A stretch of DNA of 64,000 nucleotides from Escherichia coli (GTDB lineage Bacteria > Pseudomonadota > Gammaproteobacteria > Enterobacterales > Enterobacteriaceae). Where the stretch lies: NCBI RefSeq assembly GCF_003334305.1, contig NZ_QOWS01000018.1; one strand, written 5' to 3'. The translations under genes and the position numbers were made by a program. Below are positions 14,017-37,810 of this stretch, piece after piece (within the stretch, counting starts at the first letter, position 1; each line of letters opens with the position of its first letter). The notes beneath the pieces are model-generated. The model was not told the DNA's origin, did not search any database, and worked only from the letters and a program-made list of their open reading frames with translations.

Positions 14017-14098
14017 GGTCGGTGCACTTTAGGTGAAAAAGGTTGAGTCGCAAAGCAGAATGCATCTAGCATAAAGCCTTATTATTGATGAGGCTATC

Positions 14099-19640: not shown

Positions 19641-20236
19641 CCACGCTGACAGCACAACAGATTGCCTGTGTTTACGCCTGGCTGGCGCAGTTGTTCTCCC
19701 GTGAACTGGACGATGAACAACTGACGCAAATCGCCAGTGCGCAGATGGCTGAATGGTTTTCGTTGCTGAAAAGCGAACCGCCGCTGGCTGCGGCGGTGAA
19801 TGAGCTGGAAAACTGTATTGCCACGCTGACAGTACGTGACGATGCCCGTCTGGAACTGGCCGCTGACTTTTGCGGCCTGTTTCTGATGACCGACAAACAA
19901 GCGGCGCTGCCGTATGCATCGGCCTACAAACAGGACGAGCAAGAGATTAAACGCTTGTTAGTTGAGGCAGGGATGGAAACCAGCGGCAATTTCAACGAAC
20001 CGGCAGATCATCTGGCGATCTATCTCGAATTGCTCAGCCATCTGCATTTTTCGCTGGGAGAGGGGACCGTTCCTGCGCGAAGAATCGACAGTTTGCGGCA
20101 AAAAACACTGACGGCGCTGTGGCAATGGTTACCAGAGTTTGTTGCGCGTTGCCATCAGCATGACAGCTTTGGTTTTTACGCGGCACTAAGCCAGTTATTG
20201 CTGGTGTTAGTGGAGTGCGACCACCAAAACAGATAA
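19637..20236 (+). CDS. torD: TorA-specific chaperone TorD
   Basis: Start taken at [20 protein letters not shown] (199 aa). Confidence 0.9.
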
Positions 20237-20244
20237 CGTCGTTT

Positions 20245-20330
20245 GTGCGCCTGAAAAGACGCGTTTAGCGTCGCATCAGGCATTATGGGGCAGTTGCCGG
20301 ATGCGTCATCACATCCGGCAAACACACATC
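20245..20330. repeat. REP/BIME-like palindromic repeats between torD and cbpM
   Basis: gacgcgtttagcgtcgcatcaggc and gccggatgcg...catccggc palindromic units. Confidence 0.6.
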
Positions 20331-20634
20331 ACGGATGAGTTACAAACCGGGAAAGTCGCTGGCGCAGCAGGCGGTTTTCCTGCTTCAGGTGCGCAATATC
20401 ATCCATTAACGTCAGCGCCACCGCGATCCCAGGCCAGTCCAGAGCCAGTTCATGACGCAGGCGTACTGCGCGTTGCACCACGATGGCGGCATGGTCGTCA
20501 AATACCCAGGTTGTTTCCTGGATCTCACGCGGTTCAACCACCCCCAAACCGACAATTTCATTCAACTCCTCTTCAGAGATGCCGGTATGCAGGCAAAATT
20601 CGGTAATAGTAAAAGTCACCGTAACATTAGCCAT
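20329..20634 (-). CDS. cbpM: Chaperone modulator CbpM
   Basis: Start taken at [13 protein letters not shown] (101 aa); start overlaps the cbpA stop (TAATG). Confidence 0.85.
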
Positions 20635-21554
20635 TATGCTTTCCCCCAATCTTTACGTGGATCAAAAGACGACTGGGCGTCTGCCAGTTGCTGCCACAGC
20701 GCGGCAGTGTTTTCATCCGGTTTCGGCGGCATCACGATTTTCAGTACCGCATACAGATCGCCGGTCTGTTTTTTGCTCACCAGACCTTTGCCTTTAACGC
20801 GCAATCGTTGCCCGGCCTGGCTGCCTGGCGGGATAGTCAGCAAAATGCTTTCTTTCAGTGTTGGAACGGTGACTTTAGCACCCAGCGCCGCTTCCCACGG
20901 GCTAACCGGCACTACAATTTCCAGATCATGGCCGACAATATCGAACAGCGGATGTGGCGCAATATGAATCACCAGCCACAAATCGCCATTTGGACCGCCG
21001 TTTTCGCCCGGCGTCCCCTGGCCTTTCAGACGGATGCGTTGACCATTGCCGACGCCCGCCGGGATCTTGACATTCAGCGTTTTCGGAATTTCCTGTTCGA
21101 TCATGCCAAAGGCGTTATAAACCGGCAGGTTATAGCTGATGGTACGCTTATGCTCAGTCAGCGTTTCTTCGAGGAATACCGCCACTTCGATTTCAATATC
21201 GTGGCCGCGTGCGGCGGGGCGTTGACGGCTCTGGCGGGCATGCTGACCGAAAATTGACGAGAAGATATCGTCAAAATCTTCGGCATTAAAACTCTGACCG
21301 TCGCCATGATGGAACTGACGGTTAAATTGCGGATCGTTGCGATGTTGCCACATCTGATCATACTCAGCGCGACGTTGTTCATCACTTAACACTTCCCAGG
21401 CTTCAGCGACCTCTTTGAAGCGGGCTTCGGCATCCGGTTCTTTGCTGACATCAGGATGGTATTTGCGGGCCAGTCGACGATAGGCGGTCTTGATTGTCTT
21501 GAGATCGTCCGTCGGTTTCACGCCCATGATGGCGTAATAATCCTTTAATTCCAT
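20634..21554 (-). CDS. cbpA: Curved-DNA-binding DnaJ-like protein CbpA
   Basis: 306-aa ORF with J domain ([12 protein letters not shown]...YHPD). Confidence 0.9.
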
Positions 21555-21814
21555 AGCGTTATCTCGCGTAAATCAACACAAATTGAAGGAACCCCTGTAA
21601 GGTAACTCCTATAAGTGTAGGGTAATCCTCAAAATTTCATATGCCAACACAGAATATGTTATTGAAATCATCGCGGAGAGGAGGTCGCCATCAAGATGGG
21701 TTGCTGAACATATTTTAAACAGGTGAAAAAGGGTGAGCGATTTTTGATAGTTGAACCAGGCACTTTAAGTTTAACTGGGGCGTCATTATTTATTAAATTT
21801 TATAGACGCTATAT

Positions 21815-23074
21815 ATGGGTAGTAATATACATGGAATTAGTTGCACTGCAAATAATTATTTGAAACAGGCCTGGAACGATATAAAAAATGAGTACGAAAA
21901 AAATCAAACATATTCAATCGCGCTTTTTGAAAACACACTGGTGTGTTTTATGCGGTTATACAATGAACTCAGACGTAAAGTAAATGAAGAGGATACTCCA
22001 TGTCTGGAATGTGAATCACTAGAAAAAGAATTTGAGGAAATGCAGAATGATAATGATCTATCATTATTTATGAGAACATTGCGTACTAATGATACACAAA
22101 TTTATTCAGGGGTTTCAGGAGGTATTACATATACTATACAATATGTTCAAAATGTTGATATTGTTAGAGTGTCCTTGCCGGGCAGAGGTTCAGAGTCTAT
22201 CACAGATTTTAAAGGTTATTATTGGTATGGCTTTATGGAATATATTGAAAACATTACTGCGTGTGATGATGTTTTTTCTGAGTATTGTTTAGATGATAAT
22301 GAAAATATGAGTATCCAGCCAGCGCGGATAAATACGCCGGGAATATCTGATTTGGATTCTGGCATTGATTTATCTGGTATATCTTTTATTCAGCGTGAAA
22401 CTAACCAGGCATTAGGATTAAAATCTGCTCCTGTAGATGGCGATGGATATTGTCTGTTAAGGGCCATACTGGTTTTAAAAGAACATGATTATTCATGGGC
22501 GCTGGGCAGTTATAAGACGCAAAAGGAAGTTTACAACGAATTCATTAAAATGGTTGATAAAAAAACGATCGAGGCTCTTGTTGATACGGCATTCAATGAT
22601 CTCAGGGAAGATGCTAAGACATTATTTGGCGTTGATCTGCAATCTGACAACAAAATTCAGGGTGTGGGTAGTTTTATGTCATGGAGCTTTCTGTTTTTTA
22701 AAAAAGAATTCATTGATAGTTGCTTGTATGACAAAAAATGCATACTGCATTTACCCGAGTTTATATTTAATGATAACAAGACACGCCTTGTTTTAGACTC
22801 CGCCCCAGAGAAGATGATTAATGAGGTGAAAAATTTCCTCACTGCTCTTTCAGATAGCATTTGCTCATTATTTATTGTTAATAGTAACGTGGCATCAATC
22901 TCCTTAGGGAATGAATCCTTTTCAACAGATGAAGATCTTGAGTATGGTTATTTAATAAACACTGGCAATCATTATGACGTTTACCTCCCTCCTGAACTTT
23001 TTGCTCAGGCTTATAAGTTAAGAAATAAGGAAATGAATGCGCAACTCGACTATTTAAATCGTTATGCAATTTAA
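21815..23074 (+). CDS. yccE: Uncharacterised protein YccE
   Basis: 419-aa AT-rich ORF in the expected position between cbpA and agp. Confidence 0.75.
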   Translation: MGSNIHGISCTANNYLKQAWNDIKNEYEKNQTYSIALFENTLVCFMRLYNELRRKVNEEDTPCLECESLEKEFEEMQNDNDLSLFMRTLRTNDTQIYSGVSGGITYTIQYVQNVDIVRVSLPGRGSESITDFKGYYWYGFMEYIENITACDDVFSEYCLDDNENMSIQPARINTPGISDLDSGIDLSGISFIQRETNQALGLKSAPVDGDGYCLLRAILVLKEHDYSWALGSYKTQKEVYNEFIKMVDKKTIEALVDTAFNDLREDAKTLFGVDLQSDNKIQGVGSFMSWSFLFFKKEFIDSCLYDKKCILHLPEFIFNDNKTRLVLDSAPEKMINEVKNFLTALSDSICSLFIVNSNVASISLGNESFSTDEDLEYGYLINTGNHYDVYLPPELFAQAYKLRNKEMNAQLDYLNRYAI

Positions 23075-24893: not shown

Positions 24894-25499
24894 TTAGCCG
24901 TTAAGTTTAACTGCCAGACCTGCGACATATTCCCCTTGATAACGAGCAATAGACAGTTCTTCCTGGCTTGGCTGGCGTGAGCCGTCACCGCCTGCGATGG
25001 TTGTTGCGCCGTACGGCGTACCGCCGCGAACCTGTGAAACGTCAAATAATTCCTGCGCTGCGTAGCCAATGGGGACAATTACCATGCCGTGATGCGCAAG
25101 GGTCGTCCAGGTTGAAGTAATAGTTTGTTCCTGACCGCCGCCAGTACCGGTGGAACTAAAGACGCTCGCCAGTTTTCCGTATAGTGCGCCGGAAGCCCAC
25201 AGGCCGCCCGTCTGGTCGAGGAAGGTACGCATTTGACCGGACATGTTGCCAAAGCGGGTAGGTGTACCAAAAATAATGGCGTCGTAATCGGCCAGTTCTT
25301 GCGGGGTTGCAACCGGTGCAGTTTGCGTTTTACCGCCTGCTTTTTCAAATAATTGCGGCGGCATGGTTTCCGGTACACGCTTAACGACAACTTCTGCGCC
25401 ATCCACTTTGCTTGCACCCTCAGCGACTGCGCGTGCCATCGTTTCAATATGTCCGTACATGGAATAATAAAGCACTAGTATTCTTGCCTTAACACTCAT
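24894..25499 (-). CDS. wrbA: NAD(P)H:quinone oxidoreductase WrbA with an element-encoded N-terminus ([12 protein letters not shown] in place of the recalled K-12 MAKVLVLYY)
   Basis: 201-aa flavodoxin-like ORF; the first codons and the RBS (aggaga) lie in the inserted element, the rest is host wrbA. Confidence 0.9.
25469..25475. other. attL core candidate (AAAGCAC), left copy of the junction direct repeat
   Basis: Host wrbA sequence ends and element sequence begins right after this heptamer. Confidence 0.55.
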
Positions 25500-25550
25500 A
25501 TCATTGTTCTCCTGTTCAATGAACCACTTAGATAAGCATAGTCCGAAGAT

Positions 25551-27194
25551 ATGAAGCTGCTAGTGACATACATCAGGTGGAGTACTAAAGAGCAAGACTC
25601 AGGAGACTCCTTAAGACGACAAACAAACCTCATTGATGCTTTCTACTCTAAGCACAAAAACGATTATTACCTTCTTCCTGCTCACAGATACGTTGATAAG
25701 GGTAAATCTGGTTTTCACCAGCAACATAAGAATCAAGGTTCTGACTTCAGACGTATGTTTGAAAATGTTATGTCTGGGGCTATTCCAGAAGGTTCCCTGA
25801 TTGTTGTAGAGAACTTTGACCGCTTCAGTAGGGCTGATATCGACACAGCTATAGATGATGTCAGGCAGATACTGAGGAAGGGAGTCTCTATACTGACTCT
25901 GGGAGATGGTGAACTCTACGACAAGTCAGCATTAACAGACCCTGTGAAGCTGATTAAGCACATCATCATAGCTGAGCGAGCACATCAGGAATCTCTTGTT
26001 AAACAAAAGCGTATAGCTCAGGTCTGGAACCATAAAACACAGCTTGCAAGAGAACTTAAGAAGCCTATGGGTAAGCAAGCCCCCGGATGGTTAGAGCTAT
26101 CAGAAGACGGTTCACACTACATCGTTGATGAAGATAAAGCGTCACTGGTGAATATCATCTATGACAAGCGTCTTTCTGGTATGTCGATGTTTGCTATCTG
26201 CAAATGGCTAAACGAACAAGGTTACCCGACCATTAATCAGCGTAAGGTCAGAATATCCAAGACTAAGAAACCGGATGGTAACTGGTCAGCTTTAAGCGTT
26301 AAACACATCCTGACTTCACGAAGTGTATTAGGTTACCTTCCCGCTAAGATTTCTACAGAAGACCGTAAAACAGTGTTACGTGAAGAAATTGAAGGGTTCT
26401 ATCCTCAGATTGTCACAGATTCTAAGTTTTACGCTGTACAGCAACTGTTAGAGGAAACAGGGAAGGGGAAAACATCCAGCGGTGACCACTGGTTATACGT
26501 GAACATACTGAAGGGGCTTATCCGTTGTAAGTGTGGGCTTGTAATGACTCCTACAGGGATACGTAAACCCGTTTATCAAGGTACTTACCGTTGCAATGGT
26601 AATAAGGAGTCCCGTTGTAGCTACGGTACAGTGTCCAGAAAGTTACTTGATACACAGCTTTGTAGTCGTCTGTTTAGCAAACTGTCACAGCTACACGATG
26701 AAGCTACCGATACAGCTAAATTAGATGAACTACAAAGAAGATTAAACACCGTTGATGGTGAACTGGAAAAACTCACTGAGACGCTGATACAGCTTCCTAA
26801 CATCACTCAGATTCAAGAAGCACTACGGGTTAAACAGGAAGAAAAAGATGAACTGATAGTTCAGTTATCACGAGAAAAGGCGAGGGTAAAATCTGTATCA
26901 AGCTTGGATTTAAGCGGTCTTGATATGGAGTCTGTAGAGGGGAGAACTGAAGCCCAGATTATCATTAAGCGTCTGGTGAAAGAGATTGTTGTTTCTGGTA
27001 ATGAAAAGCTGGTGGATATATATCTTCACAATGGAAATATGATTCGTGGTTTCCCTCTTGATGGTAAAGATGACCACACCTTAACGCTTGAAGAAGCAAC
27101 CGATGAGATGCAGTCACTAGATGATATGCTTATTTTTGGTGAACCAGTAACAAGGATTTATCCTGCTGGTGATATGGAAGAGGTGGACGCTTAG
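25551..27194 (+). CDS. Large serine recombinase (integrase candidate)
   Basis: 547 aa; N-terminal resolvase-type catalytic motif YIRWSTKEQ (catalytic Ser), Cys-rich zinc-ribbon region (CKCG...CNGNKESRC) and coiled-coil segment typical of large serine recombinases; gene abuts the junction. Confidence 0.85.
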
Positions 27195-27979
27195 TATTTT
27201 TTATTAGGGTTCACTGAGTACTTTTTAAGCTTTGAAGCTACTCGACCAGCGTTACTATTAGCATTGGTGACGTTGGTTTTTTCAGCTTCTGTTAAGTCTG
27301 AATAGTCCAGCTTCCAAGCCTTATTACACTTAATCTGAGCATCGAGAATATCATTTCTGATAGCTGGAGCGTAACCGGATACATCGCTAATACTCATTAG
27401 CTCTTTGCACGATAGCATAGGCGCGTTATTGCGTTCAGTGGTCACGTTACCTGCATTCTTCTTACTGGTCACACCACCATCATTCGTAGTCGCGGCTTTT
27501 CCAGTTGCAGCCGAGATATCAGTCTGCCCCACAACAGCTTTGAAGTTAATTTCCTGAAAAGTTAGTTGGATTCTTAATCCGTTTGAAATTCCAACATCTT
27601 TAGAGGCTTTAAAACTTGTGATAATGGAATCATCAATTTTAATTCCGTCTTTACAGATGACAGAAATAATCTGCTTCTGGTCACGCCAGTTTTCCAGAGT
27701 GTCAATGAAGTTCTCTACTAATTGACCCTGACGAGTTAATAGTAAGCTTCCTTCATAACCAACTACAACGACACCACTGATAGTGATTGTTCTGGGTGCT
27801 CTTTGAACATTATCTGTGACGGTTTGCCCTGATTGCATGTTCTGTGTAGTCACCTGCATAGGGCTATCAAATTCCATATTTTCAGTTGCTGATAAGGTTA
27901 AGAAGGCATCTACATTATCTCTTAAGTGGAAGTAAACGCCATCTTTGCCACTGTAGCGGATTTGATTGCTAAAAATCAT
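27191..27979 (-). CDS. Hypothetical protein, possibly distal-tail (Dit)-like phage tail component
   Basis: Follows the tape-measure-like gene in the canonical order; start taken at the second Met (MIFSNQ), which has an AAGGAG RBS; homology not verified. Confidence 0.35.
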
Positions 27980-28059
27980 TAAATTCTCCTTTGATTTCAA
28001 AGGCTTAGTGTATTTTAATCATTTTTAACCAAGCCTTTGATATATAAGTATTTTCTCTG

Positions 28060-28128
28060 TTAAGCGTGAGCTACGTAAATTCTATTTTTCAGTGCGGGTA
28101 TTAACTTTGCTTTATTCACGTAGAACAC
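28060..28128. repeat. Direct repeat copy A (69 bp, internal dyad GCTACGT...ACGTAGC) upstream of the Dit-like gene
   Basis: ttaagcgtgagctacgtaaattctatttttcagtgcgggtattaac... about 88 percent identical to copy B. Confidence 0.75.
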
Positions 28129-28135
28129 CGTTAAA

Positions 28136-30304
28136 TCAATCATCTTCTGGGAATGATGAACTTAATAACGTAGCTTCTGCATATTGGTCGTAGATATTAC
28201 TGCTAAAGGTCATAAAGCTGGTTTCATCTGGTTTAATGGCAACTTCACCACCAAGTGAAACTTTCACAGGCTCCTGAATACGCTTACTTAAAGCAGAGAT
28301 TTCATCCCTCAGACCCTGAATATCTGCACTCGTTAATGCTGAATCTTGCTTAATGTTGTTTAATTCTGGATGATTGAATCTTGCAATATTCATTGTGGCA
28401 TTGTTAAACAATTCACCCATTGAACTAAAAATTCTACTCCATCCTTCGTTAATCACATTCGGTTTATTAGGGTCACCAGAATACACAGGATTAAAGTCAC
28501 TACCCACACCTACCCCAGATGGATGCATATTAGCGTTTTTGACTACTTCCTGATTCATAAAATCCAGTGCTTTCTTCAATGCATATAAACCAAGAGTGAC
28601 ACCTCTGATTTGTGGAATCATTGAAGCTAATGCTAACGCTGTTTCATAACCGTCATCAGCATAACCAATTGCAAGAGCACTACCTACACCACCAGCTACA
28701 CCTTTCAGTTTTCCACCACCTTTACCAGTAGCTACCTGACCAGCCACCTGATTAGCTCTTGTACCTAACGTTGTGATTGCTCTTGTCAGGTTCATAACCC
28801 CTGTAGTAGCACTGAATAGTGTCTTTGCAGATAACGCTATAGCAAGACCTTTGACGAAGTTGATAAATCCATCACCGACTTCATCAAGTAGCTTTCGCTT
28901 AGTGTCATCAAGGCTGTAATAGGTCTTCTTAATCTGTAGAATCCAGCCTTCAAGGTGATTGTTAAAGATACGGATGTCATCTACACCAGCTTTAAGCATG
29001 TCGATAAGTCCACCGATAGCATCACCAGCGATAGAAGAACTCATACCCATTTCACTAAGCAGGTTACTCAGGCTGGATAAGAAGCCATTTAGCTCATCCT
29101 GTGAACCTGAGAAGATTTTCACCATCGTATCATCCCAGTTGTTAGCCAGTTTCCCTAAAGCTGTCTGAGTGCTCTTAGCGACTTCAGCCCAGCCACCCGC
29201 TTTATCAATCATCAAGCCCATCTGTTTAGCGACTTTAGGGAGAGTATCACTACTTAAAATCTTCCCGTCTTTCATCGCTTTATCAAGCTCTGTAGCAGTC
29301 ATACCCAGTGCTTCAGCGAATAGCTTAAATGCACCAGCCATACGGTCACCTAACTGACCACGAAGCTCTTCAGCCTGAATCTTGCCCTTGCTCGCCATCT
29401 GCTCAAATGCTTTCAAAATGCCGTTTAGCTCATCGTTAGAAAGCCCCATTAAGCGACTCATAGCCGTTGCATTACCAAATAGCTCCTGTGTCTGTTCCTG
29501 TGACATAGAACCCTGAGCACCTGCTGCAAACTTAGCGTAGCTTGATAGCCCTTCAGAGATATTAAGACCTGTCTTGTCTGCTAAATTTCGAATAAATACC
29601 TCAGCTTCAGATGCTTTATCACCAAGTACAAACTTAGCGGCTCTCTGTGCGGAATCTCGTTTAAGACCTGCATTCATGATGGCCTTGTAAGCGTTAAGAG
29701 CACCCATCACAGAGTAAAATGCACCAGATAACTTGATTGCATTGCTTGCAAGATTATTAAATGCGTCGCTTGTATTGTTAATGCTGGTGGATGTATGACC
29801 TTTAGCTTTAGCAATTGCTTCTCTGACTGAAGCATTTAACTGAGTCAGCTTCTCATTGAATTTTGAAGAATCCATTGACCCAGCTTTAGCAGATAGCCCG
29901 TAAAACTGAGATTTGATGTATTTCTGCAAAATAGGGTCAAAGCCTTTTAGCTTAGACATATTAGCTGAGTAAGCCGCTGTGATTGCTCTGTTGCCGCTAA
30001 TTCGTGGCTGTCTTGGTTGTCTAAGTGGCTTTAAAGTGTCATCAATTTCCGTTTTAATCTTAAACGCTCTAGTGTTTTTAAGACGCTGCTCAATCTTGGA
30101 AACAGTTTTATCGACATTCTTTTCCATTAGTTTGAGAGAATCATTTAAAGGCGTAGGGTTAACTCTGAATGCCTTATTTAGTCGTTTCTCAATTCTTGAT
30201 GCGATTTGCATCGTTTGTTTCTCGGCTTTTTCCAAGCCTTTTAAAACTTTCTGAGAGCTAAAACTTAGCTCAATCAAAAAATCATCAACTTTAAATTGTG
30301 CCAT
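28136..30304 (-). CDS. Tape-measure-like protein (phage tail length tape measure family candidate)
   Basis: 722 aa; coiled-coil N-terminus, central region resembling the tape-measure core (...AEELRGQLGDRMAGAFKLFAEALGMTATELDKAMKDG...), Gly-rich hydrophobic segments. Confidence 0.55.
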   Translation of the reverse strand: MAQFKVDDFLIELSFSSQKVLKGLEKAEKQTMQIASRIEKRLNKAFRVNPTPLNDSLKLMEKNVDKTVSKIEQRLKNTRAFKIKTEIDDTLKPLRQPRQPRISGNRAITAAYSANMSKLKGFDPILQKYIKSQFYGLSAKAGSMDSSKFNEKLTQLNASVREAIAKAKGHTSTSINNTSDAFNNLASNAIKLSGAFYSVMGALNAYKAIMNAGLKRDSAQRAAKFVLGDKASEAEVFIRNLADKTGLNISEGLSSYAKFAAGAQGSMSQEQTQELFGNATAMSRLMGLSNDELNGILKAFEQMASKGKIQAEELRGQLGDRMAGAFKLFAEALGMTATELDKAMKDGKILSSDTLPKVAKQMGLMIDKAGGWAEVAKSTQTALGKLANNWDDTMVKIFSGSQDELNGFLSSLSNLLSEMGMSSSIAGDAIGGLIDMLKAGVDDIRIFNNHLEGWILQIKKTYYSLDDTKRKLLDEVGDGFINFVKGLAIALSAKTLFSATTGVMNLTRAITTLGTRANQVAGQVATGKGGGKLKGVAGGVGSALAIGYADDGYETALALASMIPQIRGVTLGLYALKKALDFMNQEVVKNANMHPSGVGVGSDFNPVYSGDPNKPNVINEGWSRIFSSMGELFNNATMNIARFNHPELNNIKQDSALTSADIQGLRDEISALSKRIQEPVKVSLGGEVAIKPDETSFMTFSSNIYDQYAEATLLSSSFPEDD

Positions 30305-30322
30305 TGTTCATATTTCACCTCT

Positions 30323-30390
30323 TTAAGCGTGAGCTACGTAAATTCTATTTTTCAGTGTGGGTATTAGCTTTACAGATTTCACGTAGCACA
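30323..30390. repeat. Direct repeat copy B upstream of the tape-measure-like gene
   Basis: ttaagcgtgagctacgtaaattctatttttcagtgtgggtattagc...cacgtagcacac. Confidence 0.75.
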
Positions 30391-30505
30391 CATAGGATTC
30401 GATAGAAGACTATCTCATATACAAAAAAGGAGAGTTACCGATGTCACTCGATAATCTCTCCCGTAGATTTTTACCCAACCAATTCTATTAGAAGCTAATC
30501 TCAAA

Positions 30506-30721
30506 TTAATGGTAAACGTAAGAATACATCCCATCATCACCTAAAATCTGTGCGTCACATGGTAATTTATCTAAGCACCATGAAGGAATCTTACGTACCT
30601 TTGGTTTATGTGAGGTGATAACTTGATGCTGATTTTTAATTCGTAGCTTTGGTTTAGTCTGAAGCTTTAAGTTCTCACAAACAGACTTAATAAGTTCATA
30701 GCGTTCTGTTAAATCAATCAT
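30506..30721 (-). CDS. Hypothetical small basic protein
   Basis: 71-aa ORF co-oriented with neighbouring element genes; no recognisable motif. Confidence 0.4.
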   Translation of the reverse strand: MIDLTERYELIKSVCENLKLQTKPKLRIKNQHQVITSHKPKVRKIPSWCLDKLPCDAQILGDDGMYSYVYH

Positions 30722-30744
30722 TCACCACCTCTTTTAATTCATAG

Positions 30745-31455
30745 TTAAAGTGCCTTGCTATATTTCTGAGAAATCTTCACTAACTGCTCAATATCAGCCT
30801 GCATAGCAATCTTCTTCTGCGTTTCATATGCAGAAATAAGCTCTTTCATAGCCTGAAGCTCTCTTGAGAGATACAACTTAACATTTTCAAGTTGCTTGTT
30901 ACGTGATGCCAAGATGTTCTGTCTGGCAAGTTCAGCGAGTTCTTCATCGCTCTTATTAGTCGTGTAAATAAACTGACCAGCACCCCTTGAAGCTTTAACC
31001 ATCTTCACAATTCGATATCCAGCAGGAAGACTACTAATCACGGCTGCGACGTTTTCTTGAAAAGTACCAAAACCATCATTGTCTTCGTATGTGAAGTAAA
31101 CATACGGCTTCTGTGACAATTCATCCTGAATCTCAAATTCTGACGGCTCAATAGCTGATTGCATCAGGGTAACTTTACTGTAAGCATCATCTAGTTTAAT
31201 ACGCTGTGCTTTTAGCAGTGGGTAATATTCACGCTCAAGCTCAAGTAATGCTTCAGTTTTGCATACATCAGGCATCTCTTGAGGCTCAGGAGACACAAAG
31301 ATGATTTCCTTTGGTGACATTCGGATTTCTTGCTCAAGCTTAATTCTTTCATCGTGTTCTTTACGCTGAATAGCGATAGCTGGATGTTCAGTCTGTGGCG
31401 ACCAGTCACCGAAGCTATCAATCACTTTGCCATTAATGTAAATATCATTTGTCAT
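30745..31455 (-). CDS. Hypothetical protein with C-terminal coiled coil
   Basis: 236-aa ORF with a good RBS (aagagga); no recognisable domain. Confidence 0.5.
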   Translation of the reverse strand: MTNDIYINGKVIDSFGDWSPQTEHPAIAIQRKEHDERIKLEQEIRMSPKEIIFVSPEPQEMPDVCKTEALLELEREYYPLLKAQRIKLDDAYSKVTLMQSAIEPSEFEIQDELSQKPYVYFTYEDNDGFGTFQENVAAVISSLPAGYRIVKMVKASRGAGQFIYTTNKSDEELAELARQNILASRNKQLENVKLYLSRELQAMKELISAYETQKKIAMQADIEQLVKISQKYSKAL

Positions 31456-31933
31456 TGTTTTTTCCTCTTCTAAGCTAAAGTATTTCAGTTTTTAAAAAGC
31501 ACACCTGACAGCCTATCTAAACTTAGAAGAGACTTAAAAGGCGGTTTGCCAAGTATGCTTTTTAAAAGCTGAAAAAGCCCTAGATAACTAAAACGCTATA
31601 AAGGGCTAAGGTGAAGAAATTAAAACATCTAAAGGATTCAATAACGAATGAACAAAGACTTTTCGAGATAGCCTCTCAGGTTGTATAAGAGGCCATGTAG
31701 CGAAAAGCATTGCACCTTTCAGAATGTTCGGTATAGAACATACCTCACCAACTCAGAATATCCATCCATCGGATTATTGAAATAAATAAGAGAGAAATTC
31801 TCTCTATAATTAAAATTATGTCATGCTTAAGGTTATTTGTCAACAGCTTTTTAACAGATTGGTAACATTTATACTTTAATAGATGCACCTGCAATCATAC
31901 CAATCAACACAAAACAGAGAATCACCAATTCCA

Positions 31934-32257
31934 TTAATGCACCACCTTCGAATCCGTAACCAGAATATTATCGCTGTACAAAATTGCTATAGCCGCCTTG
32001 AGATATTTTTCAGGGCTAACGCTGTATTTGTTCGTTTGCTCGACAACCAATCTTTTCATGTTGCTGTCTTTAATTGGTAGCATCATTCGAGGCTCGTTAA
32101 ACTCCACCGACTGAATAAAGTCAGAGATGCTTTCCGCATTATCAGTCATTAACTCTAACAACTTATCAAAGTCAATGCTAACACCTACATCAGTGAAAGC
32201 CTGAATCATCATGGCGGTGTCGGTATCAATAAAAATCTGTAATTCGTAATTGTTCAT
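31934..32257 (-). CDS. Hypothetical acidic protein
   Basis: Start taken at the ATG (MNNYELQIF) preceded by AAGGAG; the track ORF begins at an upstream TTG. Confidence 0.45.
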   Translation of the reverse strand: MNNYELQIFIDTDTAMMIQAFTDVGVSIDFDKLLELMTDNAESISDFIQSVEFNEPRMMLPIKDSNMKRLVVEQTNKYSVSPEKYLKAAIAILYSDNILVTDSKVVH

Positions 32258-32412
32258 TTTTAAAATCTCCTTTTTACCAGACCTCCTCAATCGCTCTGTA
32301 ACGAGCTAAACAGTCTTTTTCAGGGGTAGCCTGTACAGTGGTATTACCCACCCTAAAATAAGATAGTTTTTTGCGTCAGAATGCGATTGAGAGCGTCTGA
32401 GAAGCTGTTTTT

Positions 32413-32700
32413 CTAATTTCTCTTAAAGTCTCGGACTTGCATAAGATTTTTTGGTCTGGTATCGGCTCTGTTACCATTTCGATGGATAATTTGCTTGTTG
32501 GATTGATAGCCATGATAAAGAAACCAGACAACATATTTCACGTAGAAAGTATATCGGCCTATATTAAATGTTTTGTTGCCGTAGTCGTCGGTGTTTATCG
32601 TGACTGACTCTCCATCAGACCAGCACAGGGAATCACTGGATTCATCATAGATAAGGTGTTCTGCAAAATATCTTCTAACATCTTCATTCCAAGGTTTCAT
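32413..32700 (-). CDS. HNH endonuclease-like protein
   Basis: 95 aa; C-terminal IIHRNGNRADTRPKNL resembles the HNH core (I-H-x-N/D-G-N-x-x-D-N-R-x-x-N-L) of phage HNH nucleases. Confidence 0.5.
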   Translation of the reverse strand: MKPWNEDVRRYFAEHLIYDESSDSLCWSDGESVTINTDDYGNKTFNIGRYTFYVKYVVWFLYHGYQSNKQIIHRNGNRADTRPKNLMQVRDFKRN

Positions 32701-32912
32701 AAAACCTCCTCACCCCAATAACCTAATTCAATCTTGTGACGCTCAAACCATTCCGGTTTAACTGCTGTTTTCAGTACTTCATTTGGGCCAATGGCTTTAA
32801 TGAAAATATCTTTTGAGTTATGGATGTCACCGAATCCGTTTCCTTCAATCAGGAGGTCGGAGATGTAGCGAATCATTTTATCCGTGTGGTATTCAAAGGT
32901 AACGCATAGCAT
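32697..32912 (-). CDS. Hypothetical protein
   Basis: 71-aa ORF with start/stop overlap to both neighbours (operon-like coupling). Confidence 0.4.
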   Translation of the reverse strand: MLCVTFEYHTDKMIRYISDLLIEGNGFGDIHNSKDIFIKAIGPNEVLKTAVKPEWFERHKIELGYWGEEVL

Positions 32913-33193
32913 TAAACCTCCAGAGACAGCTTGTGAATCTTAAGACTCAATAGACGGGCAATATCAATTTTAAAGCCGTTAAGTCCCTTCAAAGTATCTA
33001 AAGCGTCCTGAGTAATTCGGATGTGTTTACGACCTTTAGAGACTGGATATTTAAGTAAATCCGACTCAGTAACCTCTTTAGCAATTGCAAGCTGCATAAC
33101 AGTCTGATGAGGTAAGTTAGTAGCTCGTTTAATTCTGGCAAGCTCGTTAAAAGCTTCCTCTGAAATGCGGGTTAAAGTGTGTTTGTTTTTCAT
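32912..33193 (-). CDS. Putative ribbon-helix-helix DNA-binding protein
   Basis: N-terminal HTLTRISEEAFNELARIKRATNL pattern (beta-strand then helix) typical of Arc/MetJ/CopG-type regulators. Confidence 0.4.
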   Translation of the reverse strand: MKNKHTLTRISEEAFNELARIKRATNLPHQTVMQLAIAKEVTESDLLKYPVSKGRKHIRITQDALDTLKGLNGFKIDIARLLSLKIHKLSLEV

Positions 33194-33194
33194 T

Positions 33195-33749
33195 TTAAAA
33201 TTCCTCTGTAACTAAATACGGGTCAAATTCAAAGTCTGGTTCACTGGTTGTAAGGCTGATATTTCCAACTTCCGCATGATGATTAATTGTCTCAATAACT
33301 TTCATGCAAATAGTGGCTAAGTTAGCGCAATATTTATCACTTGGTAATTCGTAGCTAAGTCTGGTTGCTTGTCTTTGAAGATGGCTCGTCACTGTGCTTG
33401 AACTAATCTCATCAAGACTTCGCAGTAAATAAAAAACCTTCCGGTGATAATTATCTCTTCCAAGACTGCGACAAGTACCGATAATTACATCTTCAATTCG
33501 TGGCGGTAATTGCTCGTAAGAATCAAAGCCCATCAAGAAAGTTTTTAAAGTATTCTCTTTTTCTTTGCGTGCTGGCATAAATCTGTCTCGTGGCGTAATG
33601 CTACGAATGACCGCTTCAATGTTCTTACGTTCGGATTTGCTAAAGGTTGGGACTTCGTAGCTGGTGGGGGTGTCTGTGTGGCTGTAACCGTTGTGTCTGT
33701 TGCGTTCTCTTGATGCCTGAAGCATCGCTCTAAATTCTCTGTCGTTCAT
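33195..33749 (-). CDS. Hypothetical protein (first gene of the leftward operon)
   Basis: 184-aa ORF with no recognisable domain. Confidence 0.45.
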   Translation of the reverse strand: MNDREFRAMLQASRERNRHNGYSHTDTPTSYEVPTFSKSERKNIEAVIRSITPRDRFMPARKEKENTLKTFLMGFDSYEQLPPRIEDVIIGTCRSLGRDNYHRKVFYLLRSLDEISSSTVTSHLQRQATRLSYELPSDKYCANLATICMKVIETINHHAEVGNISLTTSEPDFEFDPYLVTEEF

Positions 33750-33850
33750 TCATAAGCTAGTCCTTATAATTGTTAATTCTCTGTTAACTTATATATACAA
33801 TACTAGCATTTTCAAAGACTAATGTCAAGCATTTTTTAACATTTCATTAA

Positions 33851-33866
33851 CATCTGTGGTATAATG
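33851..33866 (+). promoter_or_regulatory. Candidate extended -10 promoter (TGgTATAAT), rightward
   Basis: ctgTGgTATAATgg in the divergent region between the 184-aa gene and the small membrane ORF. Confidence 0.45.
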
Positions 33867-33992
33867 GTTCTATGGGGAGAGTAAAATATAAAGGCGTGGC
33901 TATGAGGTTTATTCGATAGGGGTTGGTACAAGCCCAACCAACCGAATCAACTATGTATGTCACATGGTATTGCATTGCACACAGGAAATTTA

Positions 33993-34169
33993 ATGGTAAA
34001 TCTCCCTCCTGAACTGGGGTCACCTGATGTATGGGCTGGTGGAGGTATCGGGCTGATTGCAGGTCTGTTACTCCGCTACGTCCTTGTCAGAGTGCTTGTT
34101 GTGTTCCGATTGTTCGGTCGTACATGGACGCTTGACCTTAAGGATAATGAGCACACAGAACCCCGTTAA
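33993..34169 (+). CDS. Small single-pass membrane protein (58 aa from the RBS-preceded ATG)
   Basis: Hydrophobic stretch GGGIGLIAGLLLRYVLVRVLVVF; AGGAAA RBS before the MVNLPPEL start. Confidence 0.35.
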   Translation: MVNLPPELGSPDVWAGGGIGLIAGLLLRYVLVRVLVVFRLFGRTWTLDLKDNEHTEPR

Positions 34170-34211
34170 GCTCCCTTCAAATCCCCCTGTACGAGATGGC
34201 ATAGGGGTGTC

Positions 34212-34250
34212 TTTAGCATTTTGTGCTATCTATTAAAAAATAACTTGACA
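34212..34250. promoter_or_regulatory. Operator-like dyad TAGCA-N5-TGCTA followed by ACTTGACA (module 1)
   Basis: tttagcattttgtgcta ... acttgacagaa. Confidence 0.45.
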
Positions 34251-34289
34251 GAACCGGAAAGCTGTATCTATCAGGTATTCACCTCTCTG

Positions 34290-34460
34290 ACAGTAACTTC
34301 TAAAAGTTCTTATTTTTCAATGAGTTGTAATCACCCATATATAGAGAACTGACAAGTCTCTTCACAATTAACTCTGTAACCTTAACAGTGATTTCTAAAA
34401 ATGCTTATTTTTCAATAAGTTGTAATTAGCCATATATAGAGAACTGACAAGTCTCTTCAC
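34290..34460. repeat. Two tandem copies of a 76-bp direct repeat (period 95 bp) in ORF-free DNA
   Basis: acagtaacttctaaaagttcttatttttcaatgagttgtaatcacccatatatagagaactgacaagtctcttcac versus the second copy, about 88 percent identical. Confidence 0.8.
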
Positions 34461-34777
34461 GGAGAACTTCCTGGACTCACTAAGATACAAGGCGATAACC
34501 CCAGAAAGGGAGAGCCACCTTCTAATTGGTATTGTTATGAGGATGCTTCATCCGAATCATCTACCAATCCCTAAACCGACTTCTTAAACAATCTTTACAG
34601 ACCCCGTTCACCAGTCTCAATATTTTTATTTCTCGCTCTTCGTTTGTTGCTCGTTTCTATTATTGAGGGGGTTTGAAAAACCTCTGTAAAATAACCCTTC
34701 CAGTAAAAAGCGAATAACCCCAGAGAGGGGGAATCGCCTCTTTAACATTCTCATAATCAGTGCTCTATATGAGAATT

Positions 34778-35446
34778 TCAGCCCAACCTTTGAACAATCT
34801 TGTAAGTGGTGCTTAGAGGCATTCTTAGCGATTCTGCGATGCTCTTGACGGATTGCCCTTGGCCATGCAGTTTAATCAGCCTGTCAAGCGTCTGTGCATC
34901 GTGTATATGAGGTCTTCCACGTAAACCACCCCTGTTAACCACGGCAAGTAAAAGCATTGTGTCGCCACAATAGATTGTTTGTGTAACTTCAACCTTCGGT
35001 TTACGGGGTGTGTTCCTGTATATCAAAACGCAACTTGCAAACGGTGAACGCACTACAACACCTTTCTTCCCTGCTGGTGGAAGGTATTTGACTGCTCGGT
35101 GTAACGTTCGAATCTCATGCAGAAAGGGGTTTGTATATACACACCGAAGCCAGTAAGTTGTCTTTGACCTGTGCGGAACCAGACATACACACACATCAGC
35201 TTCATGGGATTTTAGGAGGAACCTTTCAGCCATGCTAAACGGCGGGTTAACGAAGACCCGTTCACCAACCCATGATTGATTGTGAATATCATCGGTGAAC
35301 CGTGGCAACAATGCGTCATGCTCAGTTGCAGCACCATCCATCGAAAAACCAAATTCACGGTGTAGGTTACGAAATAAACGATACGGTGTACGCCAGTCAT
35401 CAGAACCACCATGATAACGACCGACATTGATTATTGGATGTGACAC
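34778..35446 (-). CDS. Dam-family (phage-type) DNA N6-adenine methyltransferase with a C-terminal HTH extension; GTG start
   Basis: N-terminal DWRTP and catalytic NPPF motifs of the phage Dam family; C-terminal about 45 aa (GRPHIHDAQTLDRLIKLHGQGQSVKSIAESLRMPLSTTYKIVQRLG) resemble the GRP-linker plus HTH of resolvase/invertase proteins. Confidence 0.7.
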   Translation of the reverse strand: MSHPIINVGRYHGGSDDWRTPYRLFRNLHREFGFSMDGAATEHDALLPRFTDDIHNQSWVGERVFVNPPFSMAERFLLKSHEADVCVCLVPHRSKTTYWLRCVYTNPFLHEIRTLHRAVKYLPPAGKKGVVVRSPFASCVLIYRNTPRKPKVEVTQTIYCGDTMLLLAVVNRGGLRGRPHIHDAQTLDRLIKLHGQGQSVKSIAESLRMPLSTTYKIVQRLG

Positions 35447-35485
35447 AAGCGAAGCGCCCCTCTTAGTATATTTCTTAATCGTCTC

Positions 35486-35546
35486 TTTAGCATTTAGTGC
35501 TTTTTGTTAAGTTTAGCACTTTTTGCTAAAGACAAAACACTTGACA
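35486..35546. promoter_or_regulatory. Operator-like dyads (TTTAGCA-N6-TGCTAAA and a second half-degenerate copy) followed by ACTTGACA (module 2), upstream of the methyltransferase gene
   Basis: tttagcatttagtgct and tttagcactttttgctaaa, then acttgacaaaa. Confidence 0.5.
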
Positions 35547-36020
35547 AAATGGTAAGATTGTTCACATGACCTTACTTAACAGATTCTTAAGAGCTTTGAA
35601 ACGAACTGTTTAACAAGGTCACTACCTCTGGTCTTATCGTTCCCTCTCTTCTTGGTAGTTCTGTTAAGTATCTTTTCAGGTATCTCTTACAGTCACTGTT
35701 AAGATAGAACCTACCTTCGGTTTCATGGTTCTCTTCCTCCCGTTAAATATCCCTTCACAGTCAGACTAAATAACACCTCTGTAGTTTCTTGGTAGAATCT
35801 TTCAAGGTAACTTAACTCTGAGTTTATGAAGTTGACCTTAGTCAATGTTTGTGAAGGTGTTACAGAGCATGTTCTCTAGGTCTGTGTAGCTCACTAAGCG
35901 AGAGAGGGGATATGTGACCATAGGGGAACCCCTCCTGTTAAAAGTTTCTTGATGTTATCATCACAATATGTATAATCACCAACTGTACAGACACCTTAAC
36001 GGTTTCTCTACACCTCACTA

Positions 36021-36089
36021 TGGCTAGGTAGGGTATGGTTTAGCTTGGTACGGCTAGGTTAGGTCTGGTTTGGTTAGGTATGGGTGGAT
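36021..36089. repeat. Degenerate G/T-rich short tandem repeat (GGYTAGGT-like units)
   Basis: tggctaggtagggtatggtttagcttggtacggctaggttaggtctggtttggttaggtatgggtgg. Confidence 0.6.
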
Positions 36090-36120
36090 TGTCGTAGCCA
36101 CGTTAAAAATCGACTTATAG

Positions 36121-36145
36121 GGACTCTTTCGGGAGTCCTTTTTAG
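36121..36145 (+). terminator. Intrinsic terminator, plus orientation, with no upstream plus-strand ORF
   Basis: ggactc-tttcgg-gagtcc stem-loop followed by ttttt. Confidence 0.6.
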
Positions 36146-36347
36146 TTTGTATAAAATCTGTACAGGAGTTATCAGGCTTCTAAAATTTTTATAAAAAATA
36201 ATCAGACCTCTTCTAAGCCTCTTCAACCAAATCTTTCGAAAATATCTGACAGATGTCTGTAGCTGCTAAGTACCCGTCACACCAGCTATGTGACCCCCTT
36301 GGCAAAAAAGCCAAATATCAGCTACATCCATGTAACTATTCAGTAAC

Positions 36348-36899
36348 TTATTTAGCAAGTCTGTAATAAGTTGCTCTAGAGATTCCTAACTCTTCCTGAA
36401 TCTGCAACCTCGTCTTACCTTGTGAAATAAGCGTCTGTACAGCCTCTGAAGAAGCCTTTACAGGCCTCCCCATATGTACCCCTTCAGCTTTAGCACGTTC
36501 AATACCAGCCTTTCTACGCTCTGCTATCAAGCTTCTTTCAAGCTGTGCCAACGTTGACATAATGCCTAACATTGCTTCACCCATAGCGCTTGATAAGTCA
36601 AACCCTTCTCTAAGGCTGATAACTGTCACACCTTTAGCCTGTAGCGCTTTAACCGTTGATAACACATCAATTGTGTCACGTCCAAGACGGTCTACAGCTA
36701 CCACAACTACGGTGTCACCTTCTCGTGCATAAGCTAACAAACTACTGAAACCGTTTCTTAAAGAAGCTTTGACAGAACCACTGACAGCTTCATCAGTGAA
36801 CCATTTAGCAATGTTGTACCCTGCCTCTTCAATTTGCATTTGCTGGTTAGTGATGGATTGGTCATCTGTACTCACCCTGCAATATCCAAGTATCGCCAT
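36348..36899 (-). CDS. Small serine recombinase (resolvase/DNA-invertase family)
   Basis: 183 aa; N-terminal catalytic motif GYCRVSTDDQ, resolvase core, C-terminal GRP linker plus HTH. Confidence 0.85.
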   Translation of the reverse strand: MAILGYCRVSTDDQSITNQQMQIEEAGYNIAKWFTDEAVSGSVKASLRNGFSSLLAYAREGDTVVVVAVDRLGRDTIDVLSTVKALQAKGVTVISLREGFDLSSAMGEAMLGIMSTLAQLERSLIAERRKAGIERAKAEGVHMGRPVKASSEAVQTLISQGKTRLQIQEELGISRATYYRLAK

Positions 36900-36912
36900 A
36901 CATCCCCCTTAG

Positions 36913-37040
36913 AAGTCTCAAAAGTTAGTCTCATAAGTTTAGCTGTCTCATAATCCAAAAACAACCTTTTGAGACTACTTGAGGGTGCATTCTACCGTTA
37001 CGTTGAAAGTGTCTCAAAAGGAAGTCCTTTTAAGACTGGT
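36913..37040. promoter_or_regulatory. Iteron-like array of GTCTCAWAAG motifs (at least four direct, two inverted) immediately upstream of the small recombinase gene
   Basis: gtctcaaaag, gtctcataag, gtctcataat, inverted ttttgagact, gtctcaaaag, taagact within about 125 bp. Confidence 0.6.
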
Positions 37041-37416
37041 TATGAAGGAGCTATGAAGATTTTAGGAGGGTAACTATAACCATCACTTTCTAACTTTCAC
37101 GTAGGAAATCGTTAAGTTTCTTGATAGTTACACCATGTGACCAACTATCTATATATCGTTATATAGCCCTGTATATAACACTTTTCTAGGAGTCGAGAGA
37201 GGGACGACTAACACGATACAGTTTACCCTGAAAAGAGACTTCACAGATTCTCTATATATTTCAATAAGTTAGGCTAAAAAGAGACTATACCGATACTGTA
37301 TAGAATCTGTGTAGAATTGCTTAGATACTTGGAAAAATGCCTTTAAATTGAATAGGTACTAACCTGTTTATGTCCTGTTATTAACAGGTAGTTGAATGTA
37401 CGTGTTTAGCTATGTA

Positions 37417-37438
37417 AAAGCACCAGAACTTTAGCCAT
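37417..37438 (-). other. attR core candidate (AAAGCAC) plus the displaced native wrbA start codon and first five codons
   Basis: Minus strand reads ATG GCT AAA GTT CTG GTG C..., the recalled native wrbA 5' end, now separated from the gene body by the element. Confidence 0.6.
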
Positions 37439-37810
37439 TTCTAACCACTCCTCGTGTTATCTCTATTCCGTAGCGATTCGCTACCACTTATTTAAAGATA
37501 AGACGTCCTTTTCAGAGTGCAAATTTCACAACCACTTATTTGATTTATAACAACTTTCACAAGCACGTAATTTTGTCGCAAAATGACACATTTTTATCTC
37601 ATCGCGTTTTTTTAATCATAAGAGCGGCTTATGGATAATTATTGGAGATGATATCTATTCTCGCTAAGAAGCTGTTGCAGGATATTACCAAACGCGGGTC
37701 TGCCCGCGTCAGTTCACTAAGCTTAGTCCCACGTAGCGAAAATATGGCAGCCGCCATACGCCGCGTTAATTCTATGCAATATGATGTCTATACCCAGACG
37801 GAGGTCAGTA

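Follow-up and report, generated by a model that had tools for sequence, protein, structure and literature searches.

An integrative element in wrbA of Escherichia coli belongs to a common family with two tail genes of Ounavirinae origin and is probably satellite-like

Vibrio PLEs are satellites of the virulent myophage ICP1 that integrate by means of a large serine recombinase (LSR) (PMC11838301, PMC6002521, PMC7145576). They encode their own tape measure protein (TMP), tail assembly chaperone, and, in some variants, baseplate hub (BhuB), which are 20%, 20%, and 41% identical, respectively, to those of ICP1 (PMC11838301). In PLE virions, the TMP and hub are those of PLE, to the exclusion of the ICP1 proteins, the chimeric tails having been documented by transmission electron microscopy, western blot, and mass spectrometry, and deletion of the PLE tmp gene lowers transduction by 96 to 99.9% (PMC11838301). 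In E. coli, satellites of phAPEC8-like phages with a "tape measure plus baseplate component" were predicted by Barth, Dunham, and Seed in 2023 (PMC10448857). Tails are also a target of defense: the Rta protein of PLE11 blocks the ICP1 TMP (PMC11838301), and Tab of Pseudomonas phage JBD26 is a defense directed at tail assembly (PMC10884400). Here, we describe an 11,948-bp element inserted in wrbA, at positions 25476 to 37423 of a 64,000-nucleotide stretch of E. coli DNA (the window). The window is 100% identical to the chromosome of strain A7 from orangutan feces (NZ_CP028767.1), and the wrbA element is called the A7 copy below. It is a discrete integrative element and one member of a common family rather than an isolated oddity. 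By analogy with the PLEs, we think it probable that this family of ~11- to 12-kb elements is satellite-like and exploits virulent Felix O1-like (Ounavirinae) myophages by means of chimeric tails.

A discrete integrative element and its family

Alignment with K-12, in which the wrbA-ymdF site is empty, placed the element inside wrbA. The match to K-12 ends directly after AAAGCAC (25469-25475) and restarts at a second AAAGCAC (37417-37423); this 7-bp core is duplicated relative to the empty site, and the LSR gene adjoins attL. The 5′ end of wrbA is now supplied by the element (MSVKARI... compared to MAKV... in K-12). The GC content of the element is 0.36 to 0.46, compared to ~0.53 in the flanks. 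A first-pass annotation, made from the letters of the window, had delimited the same interval as AT-rich, foreign-looking DNA between wrbA and ymdF, and both its boundaries proved exact. It had also reported the absence of capsid, terminase, portal, and tail tube genes. This was borne out, as no capsid, portal, terminase, tube, sheath, or lysis genes were found in the list of open reading frames (ORFs), in the annotation, in profile searches, or in the comparison with phage wV8. The virion genes of the element are those of the TMP and a tail tube initiator only.

The exact element, at a coverage of at least 80%, was present in 3 of 5,426 complete E. coli genomes. The block formed by the tube initiator, the TMP, and two further proteins, h71 and p236, was found in 474 of these genomes (8.7%), always on the chromosome, and the wrbA-type LSR was found in 74. 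A common gene order recurs at no fewer than five chromosomal sites, with a matching LSR type at each. Besides wrbA, these sites are yecE/DUF72 (YD786, CE0026f, AR434, and S115), yegR-yegS (DCE7), tonB-yciI (NCTC10444), and a site near msyB/lpxL (L037). The LSRs of the relatives match PF00239 and PF07508; those at other sites are 506 to 509 aa long and 28 to 36% identical to the wrbA type, with the exception of the near-identical LSR of DCE7. The family core consists of the LSR, tube initiator, TMP, h71, p236, h93, and usually h118, and the swappable slots are those of the HNH endonuclease, h71b, h184, the methyltransferase, and the small recombinase. The right end, from 37072 to ~37390, is 84 to 89% identical even between elements with different LSRs. 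Homologues of p236 were found in E. coli, E. albertii, and Salmonella, and those of h184 also in Shigella and E. fergusonii; the most distant p236 homologue (25% identity) still lies within the family architecture. The first-pass annotation had proposed a candidate undescribed system. In the literature searched, no paper names the element family, and none ties Felix O1-like phages to satellites; thus, the family and its helper group appear undescribed. However, the family is common, and the general kind of system is already known from the PLE and Barth-type precedents.

A relative supplied direct evidence for excised circles or concatemers in the family. A metagenome contig of 11,141 bp (L022; ENA ERZ27241592) has ends that overlap exactly by 126 bp and therefore represents an 11,015-bp circle, in which the right end of the element and the LSR gene lie directly next to each other. 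Where they join, the sequence is composed of the attL element arm, a 13-bp core (CAATGACCCTTGA), and the attR element arm of the NCTC10444 copy (tonB-yciI). This is a textbook attP, and it recurs without change in a Logan assembly from an independent dataset (SRR13378612). Five other element-length contigs (L020, L026, L028, L033, and L034) were rejected as circles; these are integrated copies with host flanks. The wrbA-type copy among them, L033 (Logan SRR30282485, 11,514 bp), stops ~30 nt past the att core on both sides. Ends of this kind arise when a k=31 assembly graph forks at the core, and they point to a mixture of occupied and unoccupied (or excised) wrbA sites in the sample.

Two phage tail genes at a classical prophage attachment locus might also be what is left of a decayed Felix O1-like or other prophage, and records of Stx phages do match the flanks of the element. 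We consider this extremely improbable. No integrase is found in Felix O1-like phages, which are virulent, whereas the compact gene order of the element recurs in hundreds of genomes and at several sites, with intact LSRs. Furthermore, a relative has been recovered as a circle with a precise attP, and in the A7 copy all core ORFs are intact, with no pseudogenized phage genes among its ORFs. That the element is something other than the eroded end of a prophage, as first supposed, thus holds in view of the conserved family, its multiple sites, and the circle. As to the Stx phages themselves, in Stx1a- and Stx2a-converting phages integrated in wrbA (LC645428 and others), the annotated "duplication due to insertion" matches both element flanks (25400-25500 and 37417-37500). 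The target of the LSR and the classical attachment site of Stx phages therefore overlap, and Stx phages and wrbA-type elements should compete for wrbA.

Two tail genes of Ounavirinae origin and their probable use

The tape-measure-like protein noticed at first reading is a 722-aa TMP. It is 32% identical to the 742-aa TMP of Felix O1-like phages (BLASTP with the TMP of phage HMD-P10). In a set of 50,697 phage records, the nearest TMPs all come from Ounavirinae, and none exceeds ~32% identity over most of its length. The TMP is mosaic within the family, with identities that vary from 21 to 100% per 50-column window of the alignment. However, three segments are retained in every version: the N-terminal ~45 residues (59 to 71% identical to wV8), the central TIGR02675 domain (50 to 72%), and a C-terminal motif, LLSSS[FY]PE[DE][DE], which reads LLSSSFPEDD in the A7 copy. 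The termini are retained in all seven family members examined.

The neighboring gene, first described as Dit-like (the tube initiators of the relatives match PF21821, Dit_like), could be refined to a tail tube initiator by its match to a solved structure (Table 1). Over 519 bp, this gene is 90 to 95% identical at the nucleotide level to ~200 Felixounavirus genomes, including wV8, O157 typing phages, and Salmonella phages. Further analysis showed that the protein is a chimera. Residues ~6 to 180, the tube-like domain, are ~94% identical to wV8 gp74 (BLASTP and family alignment), whereas the C-terminal ~80 aa, the baseplate-spanning extension, are ~30% identical. The third-codon identity to the phage is 77 to 90% over the N-domain and falls to 18% at codon ~181. 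This means that recent DNA exchange with a sharp breakpoint, and not purifying selection alone, has shaped the gene; by this codon pattern, recent recombination of the tube initiator with Felix O1-like phages is clear. The chimeric pattern was seen in seven of seven family members examined. Across the family, the C-extension exists in at least two element-specific versions, which share the conserved terminal motif SVNPNKK..Y.

In Felix O1-like phages, the tape measure gene lies directly upstream of the tube initiator gene, and the order is the same in the element. By homology and gene order, the two genes were shown to be orthologous to this adjacent pair and of Ounavirinae origin. The remaining element proteins have no homologues in wV8. 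The cryo-electron microscopy structure of phage Bas63 gives a context for the retained segments. In that phage, the N-terminal tube-like domain of the tube initiator forms a hexamer by which the trimeric hub is fitted to the six-fold tube, and its ~100-aa C-terminal extension, beside the spacer proteins, spans much of the baseplate (PMC12609058). The C-terminal 25 residues of the TMP are seen touching the hub and, at its tip, the head-distal "PA" protein (PMC12609058). The TMP termini and the tube initiator parts retained in the family are those that contact the hub and the tube in this structure.

The clear and recent exchange in the N-domain could also mean that the element is unrelated to phage parasitism and that its tail genes are cargo or a recombination reservoir, for example, as a donor of tail-core alleles to Felix O1-like phages. 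The HNH and AP2-HNH nucleases in its variable slots would fit such a role, since Barth et al. tie nucleases of this kind to the boundaries of genetic exchange (PMC10448857). Nevertheless, several observations make this account quite unlikely. First, the element-type TMP occurs in none of the 50,697 phage records, where the best match is the 32% noted above. Second, nucleotide matches of phages to the tube initiator gene end at the domain boundary, and no sequenced phage has an element-type C-extension. The flow of sequence therefore looks to be from phage to element, or else confined to homogenization of the N-domain. Third, p236, h71, TMP, tube initiator, and LSR remain strictly linked even at 25% protein identity, which speaks for an integrated function.

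In the satellite reading, which we regard as the probable one, infection by a Felix O1-like phage would lead to excision and replication of the element and to expression of the p236-h71-TMP-tube initiator block. The element TMP would dock on the phage hub through its conserved C-terminal motif. The tube initiator would dock through its phage-identical tube-like domain and would seed tails composed of phage tube, sheath, baseplate, and fibers. Element DNA would then enter capsids made by the phage and be transduced, and the phage would pay some cost. More speculatively, p236 and h71 may favor the element's TMP over that of the phage. The reading draws on the chimeric tails of PLE as its direct experimental precedent (PMC11838301).

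A number of points weigh against a satellite of Felix O1-like phages. First, no packaging signal, small terminase, terminase subunit, capsid-size redirection gene, or tail assembly chaperone was recognized in the element, and p236 has neither a detectable fold relative nor similarity to the phage chaperones, with no match to a tail assembly chaperone-like fold. Second, the element is ~1/7.4 of the size of the helper genome (11.9 compared to 88 kb), which leaves the filling of the capsid unexplained. Third, the circle came from a relative with a different LSR and not from the wrbA copy, and a tandem array could yield an identical attP junction. Fourth, the sole noncoding similarity to phage, the GGTNN array described below, is not conserved in the family. 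Finally, no anti-satellite signature, such as an initiator-nuclease fusion, was seen in Felix O1-like phages. Candidate Odn-like fusions in phages were rejected, h184 giving one weak match to an Aeromonas phage and p236 giving none. The matches to the family in IMG/VR are prophage calls in isolate genomes and not viromes.

The same two proteins would also suit a mobile island that defends against phages, is not packaged, and spreads by some other route, with the TMP and the chimeric tube initiator acting as dominant-negative decoys that lead to dead-end or noninfectious tails. In the chimera, the docking domain is near-identical to that of the phage and the baseplate-spanning part is changed, which is what a decoy might look like; TMP and tail assembly are established targets of defense (Tab, PMC10884400; Rta, PMC11838301); no packaging functions are recognizable; and the element is chromosomal and common. 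On the other hand, a decoy has no need for a full-length TMP with both termini, a central domain, and a near-native length across a mosaic, fast-evolving family. The swappable replication module and the excised circle fit a replicating, transferable element better. In addition, PADLOC-DB v2 gave no defense-system protein, the matches being an orphan methyltransferase model (the Dam-like gene, E=7e-9) and two marginal ones (E~0.007), in a scan of element proteins other than the tube initiator and the TMP. We therefore judge a pure decoy island to be unlikely, although it overlaps the satellite reading in that satellites also interfere with their helpers.

If the elements are satellites, the feature that sets the family apart is a tube initiator half-identical to that of the helper, and tail-core replacement would here be applied to a new helper group. 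A more specific proposal, on which our judgment is evenly balanced, is that this is the first satellite family of the Ounavirinae, a minimal element that arose and converged on tail-core replacement independently of the PLEs; in it, the hub- and tube-docking domain of the tube initiator would be kept identical to that of the helper by ongoing recombination, the extension and the TMP would diverge, and p236 would bias assembly or packaging. Were this convergence true, tail-core replacement would be a general and repeatedly evolved strategy of satellites.

Felix O1-like phages are widely used in the typing, biocontrol, and therapy of Salmonella and E. coli. No satellite or dedicated mobile antagonist of these phages is reported in the literature searched. 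Carried by ~9% of complete E. coli genomes and found also in Salmonella, Shigella, E. albertii, and E. fergusonii, the element family could alter the host range and efficacy of the phages. Work on PLE in 2025 left open why satellites replace the tape measure; a simpler E. coli system, with two tail genes, the structurally solved helper Bas63, and K-12 genetics, would make this question testable.

p236, control regions, and exchangeable slots

The features of the A7 copy are listed in Table 1.

Table 1. Features of the wrbA element of strain A7, in window positions
Feature	Position	Strand	Remarks
attL core AAAGCAC	25469-25475	.	Within wrbA codon ~7; from alignment with the empty K-12 site and the ORF list
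LSR, 547 aa, element integrase	25551-27194	+	phrog_95, E=5e-78; PhiC31-integrase relatives in PDB
Tail tube initiator, 262 aa, chimera	27191-27979	-	PDB 9ndy_A, "Tube initiator protein (gp018)," E=3e-114
53-nt cassette, CTACGTGAA-N35-TTTACGTAG	28071-28123	-	Immediately upstream of tube initiator gene; 69-nt direct repeat D2
TMP, 722 aa	28136-30304	-	phrog_4036, E=8e-90; TIGR02675
53-nt cassette, second copy	30334-30386	-	30 nt upstream of TMP start codon; RNA fold z=-3.9
h71, basic 71-aa protein, core family gene	30506-30721	-	Directly upstream of TMP gene
p236, 236 aa, family hallmark	30745-31455	-	RefSeq label "transposase"
Intergenic control region	31483-31843	-	Upstream of p236-TMP-tube initiator block
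h118, acidic	31934-32290	-	Annotated as 107 aa from 32257; in most relatives
Small HNH endonuclease, 95 aa	32413-32700	-	phrog_99/959/59; PF13392 in relatives
h71b, small variable protein	32697-32912	-	From ORF list and comparison of relatives
h93, 93 aa, basic (pI 10), core protein	32912-33193	-	61 to 98% conserved in relatives
h184, occupant of replication-initiator slot	33195-33749	-	All-helical, no known domain
Divergent sigma70-like promoters, extended -10	33800-33865	.	Consensus matches
Unannotated 58-aa ORF (MVNLPPELGS...)	33993-34169	+	One predicted transmembrane helix (hydropathy); AGGA ribosome-binding site
Two 76-nt direct repeats, 95-bp period	34290-34460	.	Each ends in a partial palindrome containing AAGAGACT
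Dam-like N6-adenine methyltransferase with C-terminal helix-turn-helix-like tail	34778-35446	-	phrog_111, E=1e-24; TIGR01712; PADLOC orphan methyltransferase
~12 GGTNN pentamers, then GTAGCCACGTTAAAAATC and terminator-like hairpin	36026-36143	+	A7 copy only
Small serine recombinase, 183 aa, invertase/resolvase type	36348-36899	-	phrog_125 DNA invertase, E=2e-57
Conserved right end, then LSR-specific attR arm and AAAGCAC core (37417-37423)	37072-37423	.	Conserved to ~37390

Homologues of p236 form 3,091 clusters at 90% identity, none with a Pfam domain, and only ~6 full-length clusters at 50%; the protein is absent from the 50,697 phage records. Its AlphaFold2 model (pLDDT 82) consists of a long antiparallel helical hairpin and a small alpha/beta domain, and comparison of the model with PDB and BFVD gave no significant fold match (best E=0.075 to 0.11, TM <0.4). 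An identity of p236 as a transposase was rejected, as no Pfam, PHROG, NCBIfam, or PDB sequence match was found and the fold is unmatched. The "transposase" name that p236 bears in thousands of RefSeq and GenBank entries finds no support in domain, profile, or solved-structure sequence searches and looks like a propagated misannotation. The small protein h71 is 52 to 90% conserved in all relatives. Together, p236 and h71 sit where phages have their tail assembly chaperone genes. However, they show no sequence similarity to gp71 and gp72 of wV8, and an assignment as chaperones, for which the argument is positional only, was rejected.

A 53-nt cassette precedes both tail genes. In the form CTACGTGAA-N35-TTYACGTAG, it lies upstream of the TMP and tube initiator genes across the family and is absent from wV8 and from the Barth-type satellite. 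The two genes therefore appear to share a family-specific control element, and the cassette is a candidate family-specific promoter or operator. The predicted RNA fold of the copy at 28071-28123 is not significant (z=-1.1). Within the intergenic control region upstream of p236, a sigma70-like promoter lies at 31843-31815 (11/12 match with an extended -10; a consensus match only), followed by a hairpin with a T-tract (31805-31789) and a 28-nt inverted repeat (31483-31574) that contains the AAGAGACT motif. The count of sigma70-like promoters in the element is not above that in shuffled sequences. The octamer AAGAGACT, on either strand, clusters in noncoding DNA, at 31527 in the inverted repeat upstream of p236, at 34355 and 34450 in the two 76-nt repeats, and at 37233 and 37279 near the right end. 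Its enrichment is modest, the 7-mers occurring 6 to 7 times compared to ~1.5 expected, and it may be an operator for a regulator of the element. No known RNA family was found in the element by Rfam at E<=0.1.

The slot occupied by h184 looks like an exchangeable initiator module, because S115-type members hold a phage-type replication initiator there. Homologues of h184 itself form 1,083 clusters without a Pfam domain, and the AlphaFold2 model of h184 is weak (pLDDT 68). In S115, L028, L035, and L037, the slot holds a 314- to 326-aa protein instead; that of S115 matches phage replication initiators (phrog_270/428/678, lambda O-like), and those of S115 and L035 weakly match HTH_36. Of the divergent promoters next to h184, the leftward one faces this gene, and the rightward one (TTAACA-18-TGgTATAAT) faces the 58-aa ORF and the repeats. 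The 58-aa ORF is 93 to 96% identical at the amino acid level in five relatives, is absent from S115, and travels with the h184-type module; its product is possibly a membrane-acting exclusion or toxicity factor. The 76-nt repeats adjoin the initiator slot in ORF-free DNA and are conserved in relatives with the h184 module; they are candidate origin iterons or operators. In total, ~2.9 kb of the element is without annotated ORFs and contains real repeat families, which bears out the repeat-rich, ORF-free DNA (~2.5 kb) reported at first reading.

The first-pass annotation had also listed a Dam-like methyltransferase, an HNH-like nuclease, a ribbon-helix-helix regulator candidate, and at least five ORFs with no recognizable domain. 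The two enzymes were confirmed by their profile matches (Table 1). Both occupy variable positions: the Dam-like gene is accessory, being absent from DCE7, AR434, and NCTC10444 (PF05869 in relatives), and different HNH versions are found in the relatives, with none in S115. The ribbon-helix-helix assignment was not confirmed, h93 giving only sub-threshold DndE-like matches (E=0.006 and 0.33); this protein is a candidate DNA-binding regulator. The number of ORFs without a match to Pfam, PHROG, or NCBIfam at curated thresholds came to six (with Pfam applied to four and a solved-structure sequence search to two).

Serine recombinases had been placed at both ends of the element. Two are indeed present, an LSR and a small recombinase, but the integrase role belongs to the left one alone. 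The small recombinase lies in a variable cargo slot (~36320-37072) that is empty in YD786 and, in CE0026f and DCE7, is filled by nonhomologous genes of opposite orientation; across the relatives, its occupants include unrelated recombinases. Recombinases at both ends are therefore an accident of the A7 copy. A 21-nt inverted repeat (35660-35680 and 37227-37247) brackets the small recombinase. An invertible switch was nevertheless rejected in favor of cassette replacement, because the opposite-strand genes are nonhomologous and the slot can be empty. In AR434 (L010, 17084-17608), L026, L033, and L034, the right-hand slot holds a 174-aa AP2-HNH endonuclease (phrog_99, E=7e-45). Domains of this type, derived from homing endonucleases, have been linked to phage-satellite conflicts by Barth et al. 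(PMC10448857).

The GGTNN array matches wV8 at 60.7 kb (blastn, E=1.5e-10), more weakly at 59.3 to 59.5 kb, and 152 Ounavirinae records. The counterpart repeats of wV8 (about 59.3 to 60.9 kb) are intergenic and lie upstream of replication-module genes. As the array is absent from three relatives, a family-wide site recognized by the helper (origin, promoter, or pac) was rejected, and the array is a strain-specific patch. Outside the element, another low-GC stretch of the window (0.35 to 0.37; 21500-23000), upstream of agp, is the yccE region.

Comparison with known satellites and tail-directed defenses

Tab and Rta resemble the proposed system in that they target the TMP or the tail assembly of an invading phage. 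However, they are single small proteins that block the TMP of the invader, whereas the element encodes structural proteins that would take the place of those of the phage; nothing resembling Tab or Rta was recognized in it, the orphan ORFs being possible exceptions. PICIs, cf-PICIs, and P4-like satellites are likewise small and integrated, depend on a helper for virion parts, and can interfere with that helper. Their traits are tyrosine integrases, AlpA/Stl-type regulation, Pri-Rep or alpha primase, genes for TerS, capsid size, or capsid formation, and temperate helpers. None of the PICI or cf-PICI markers was found in the element by annotation and profile searches, and the P4-like markers psu, sid, delta/ogr, epsilon, alpha primase-helicase, and tyrosine integrase are all absent. 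The element belongs to none of these groups, and the early impression of a layout unlike that of lambdoid prophages, P4-like satellites, or PICIs was correct.

The Barth-type elements are closer. These are also E. coli chromosomal elements, of ~13 kb, that end in a TMP-like gene, a baseplate-component gene, and an integrase and lack most tail genes; some have serine recombinases, and HNH-related domains and modular initiators occur as well. In contrast, they carry a major capsid protein, a decoration protein, RepA_N initiators, and mostly tyrosine integrases at tRNA or lysR sites, none of which is found in the element family. The element proteins show no detectable similarity to those of the Barth-type copy in strain A7 (NZ_CP028767.1, 1,023,700-1,032,300), and the wrbA locus is absent from Table S6 of Barth et al. 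(PMC10448857). That copy is part of a larger locus (L004; NZ_CP028767.1, 1,011,648-1,037,040), in which a P4-like set (psu, ogr/delta, sid-like, icd, epsilon, and alpha primase-helicase) occupies positions 1746 to 8247. Beside it, at 12081 to 20645, the Barth-type element, with a major capsid protein, a 612-aa TMP-like protein, a baseplate protein, and a tyrosine integrase, lies in a lysR-family gene. With the wrbA element, the A7 genome thus holds three satellite-like elements.

The comparison with the Vibrio PLEs was made from their described features and from Pfam and PHROG searches rather than by alignment of the PLE sequences themselves. Several differences were apparent. First, the hosts of the element are Enterobacteria, and its proposed helper group is the Ounavirinae. 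Second, the second tail protein is a tube initiator in the element and the hub BhuB in PLE. Third, no tail assembly chaperone, TcaP-like capsid scaffold, or RepA_N initiator was recognizable in the element by Pfam, PHROG, and NCBIfam. Finally, part of the element tube initiator is near-identical to that of the helper at the DNA level, whereas the PLE tail proteins are 19 to 41% identical to those of ICP1, with no such near-identity reported. There are also likenesses. Both kinds of element integrate through an LSR and have a virulent, contractile-tailed phage as helper, here a proposed one; both are 10 to 20 kb long and without capsid, terminase, tube, or sheath genes; and both have a swappable replication initiator beside repeats, that of the element family being a putative one. 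Both also encode a TMP and a baseplate-core protein of their own with low identity to the helper (20 to 41% in PLE and 32% for the element TMP), which in PLE give chimeric tails. By this analogy, the element is treated as a functional analogue of PLE and, by the criteria tested, not as a member of the PLE family.

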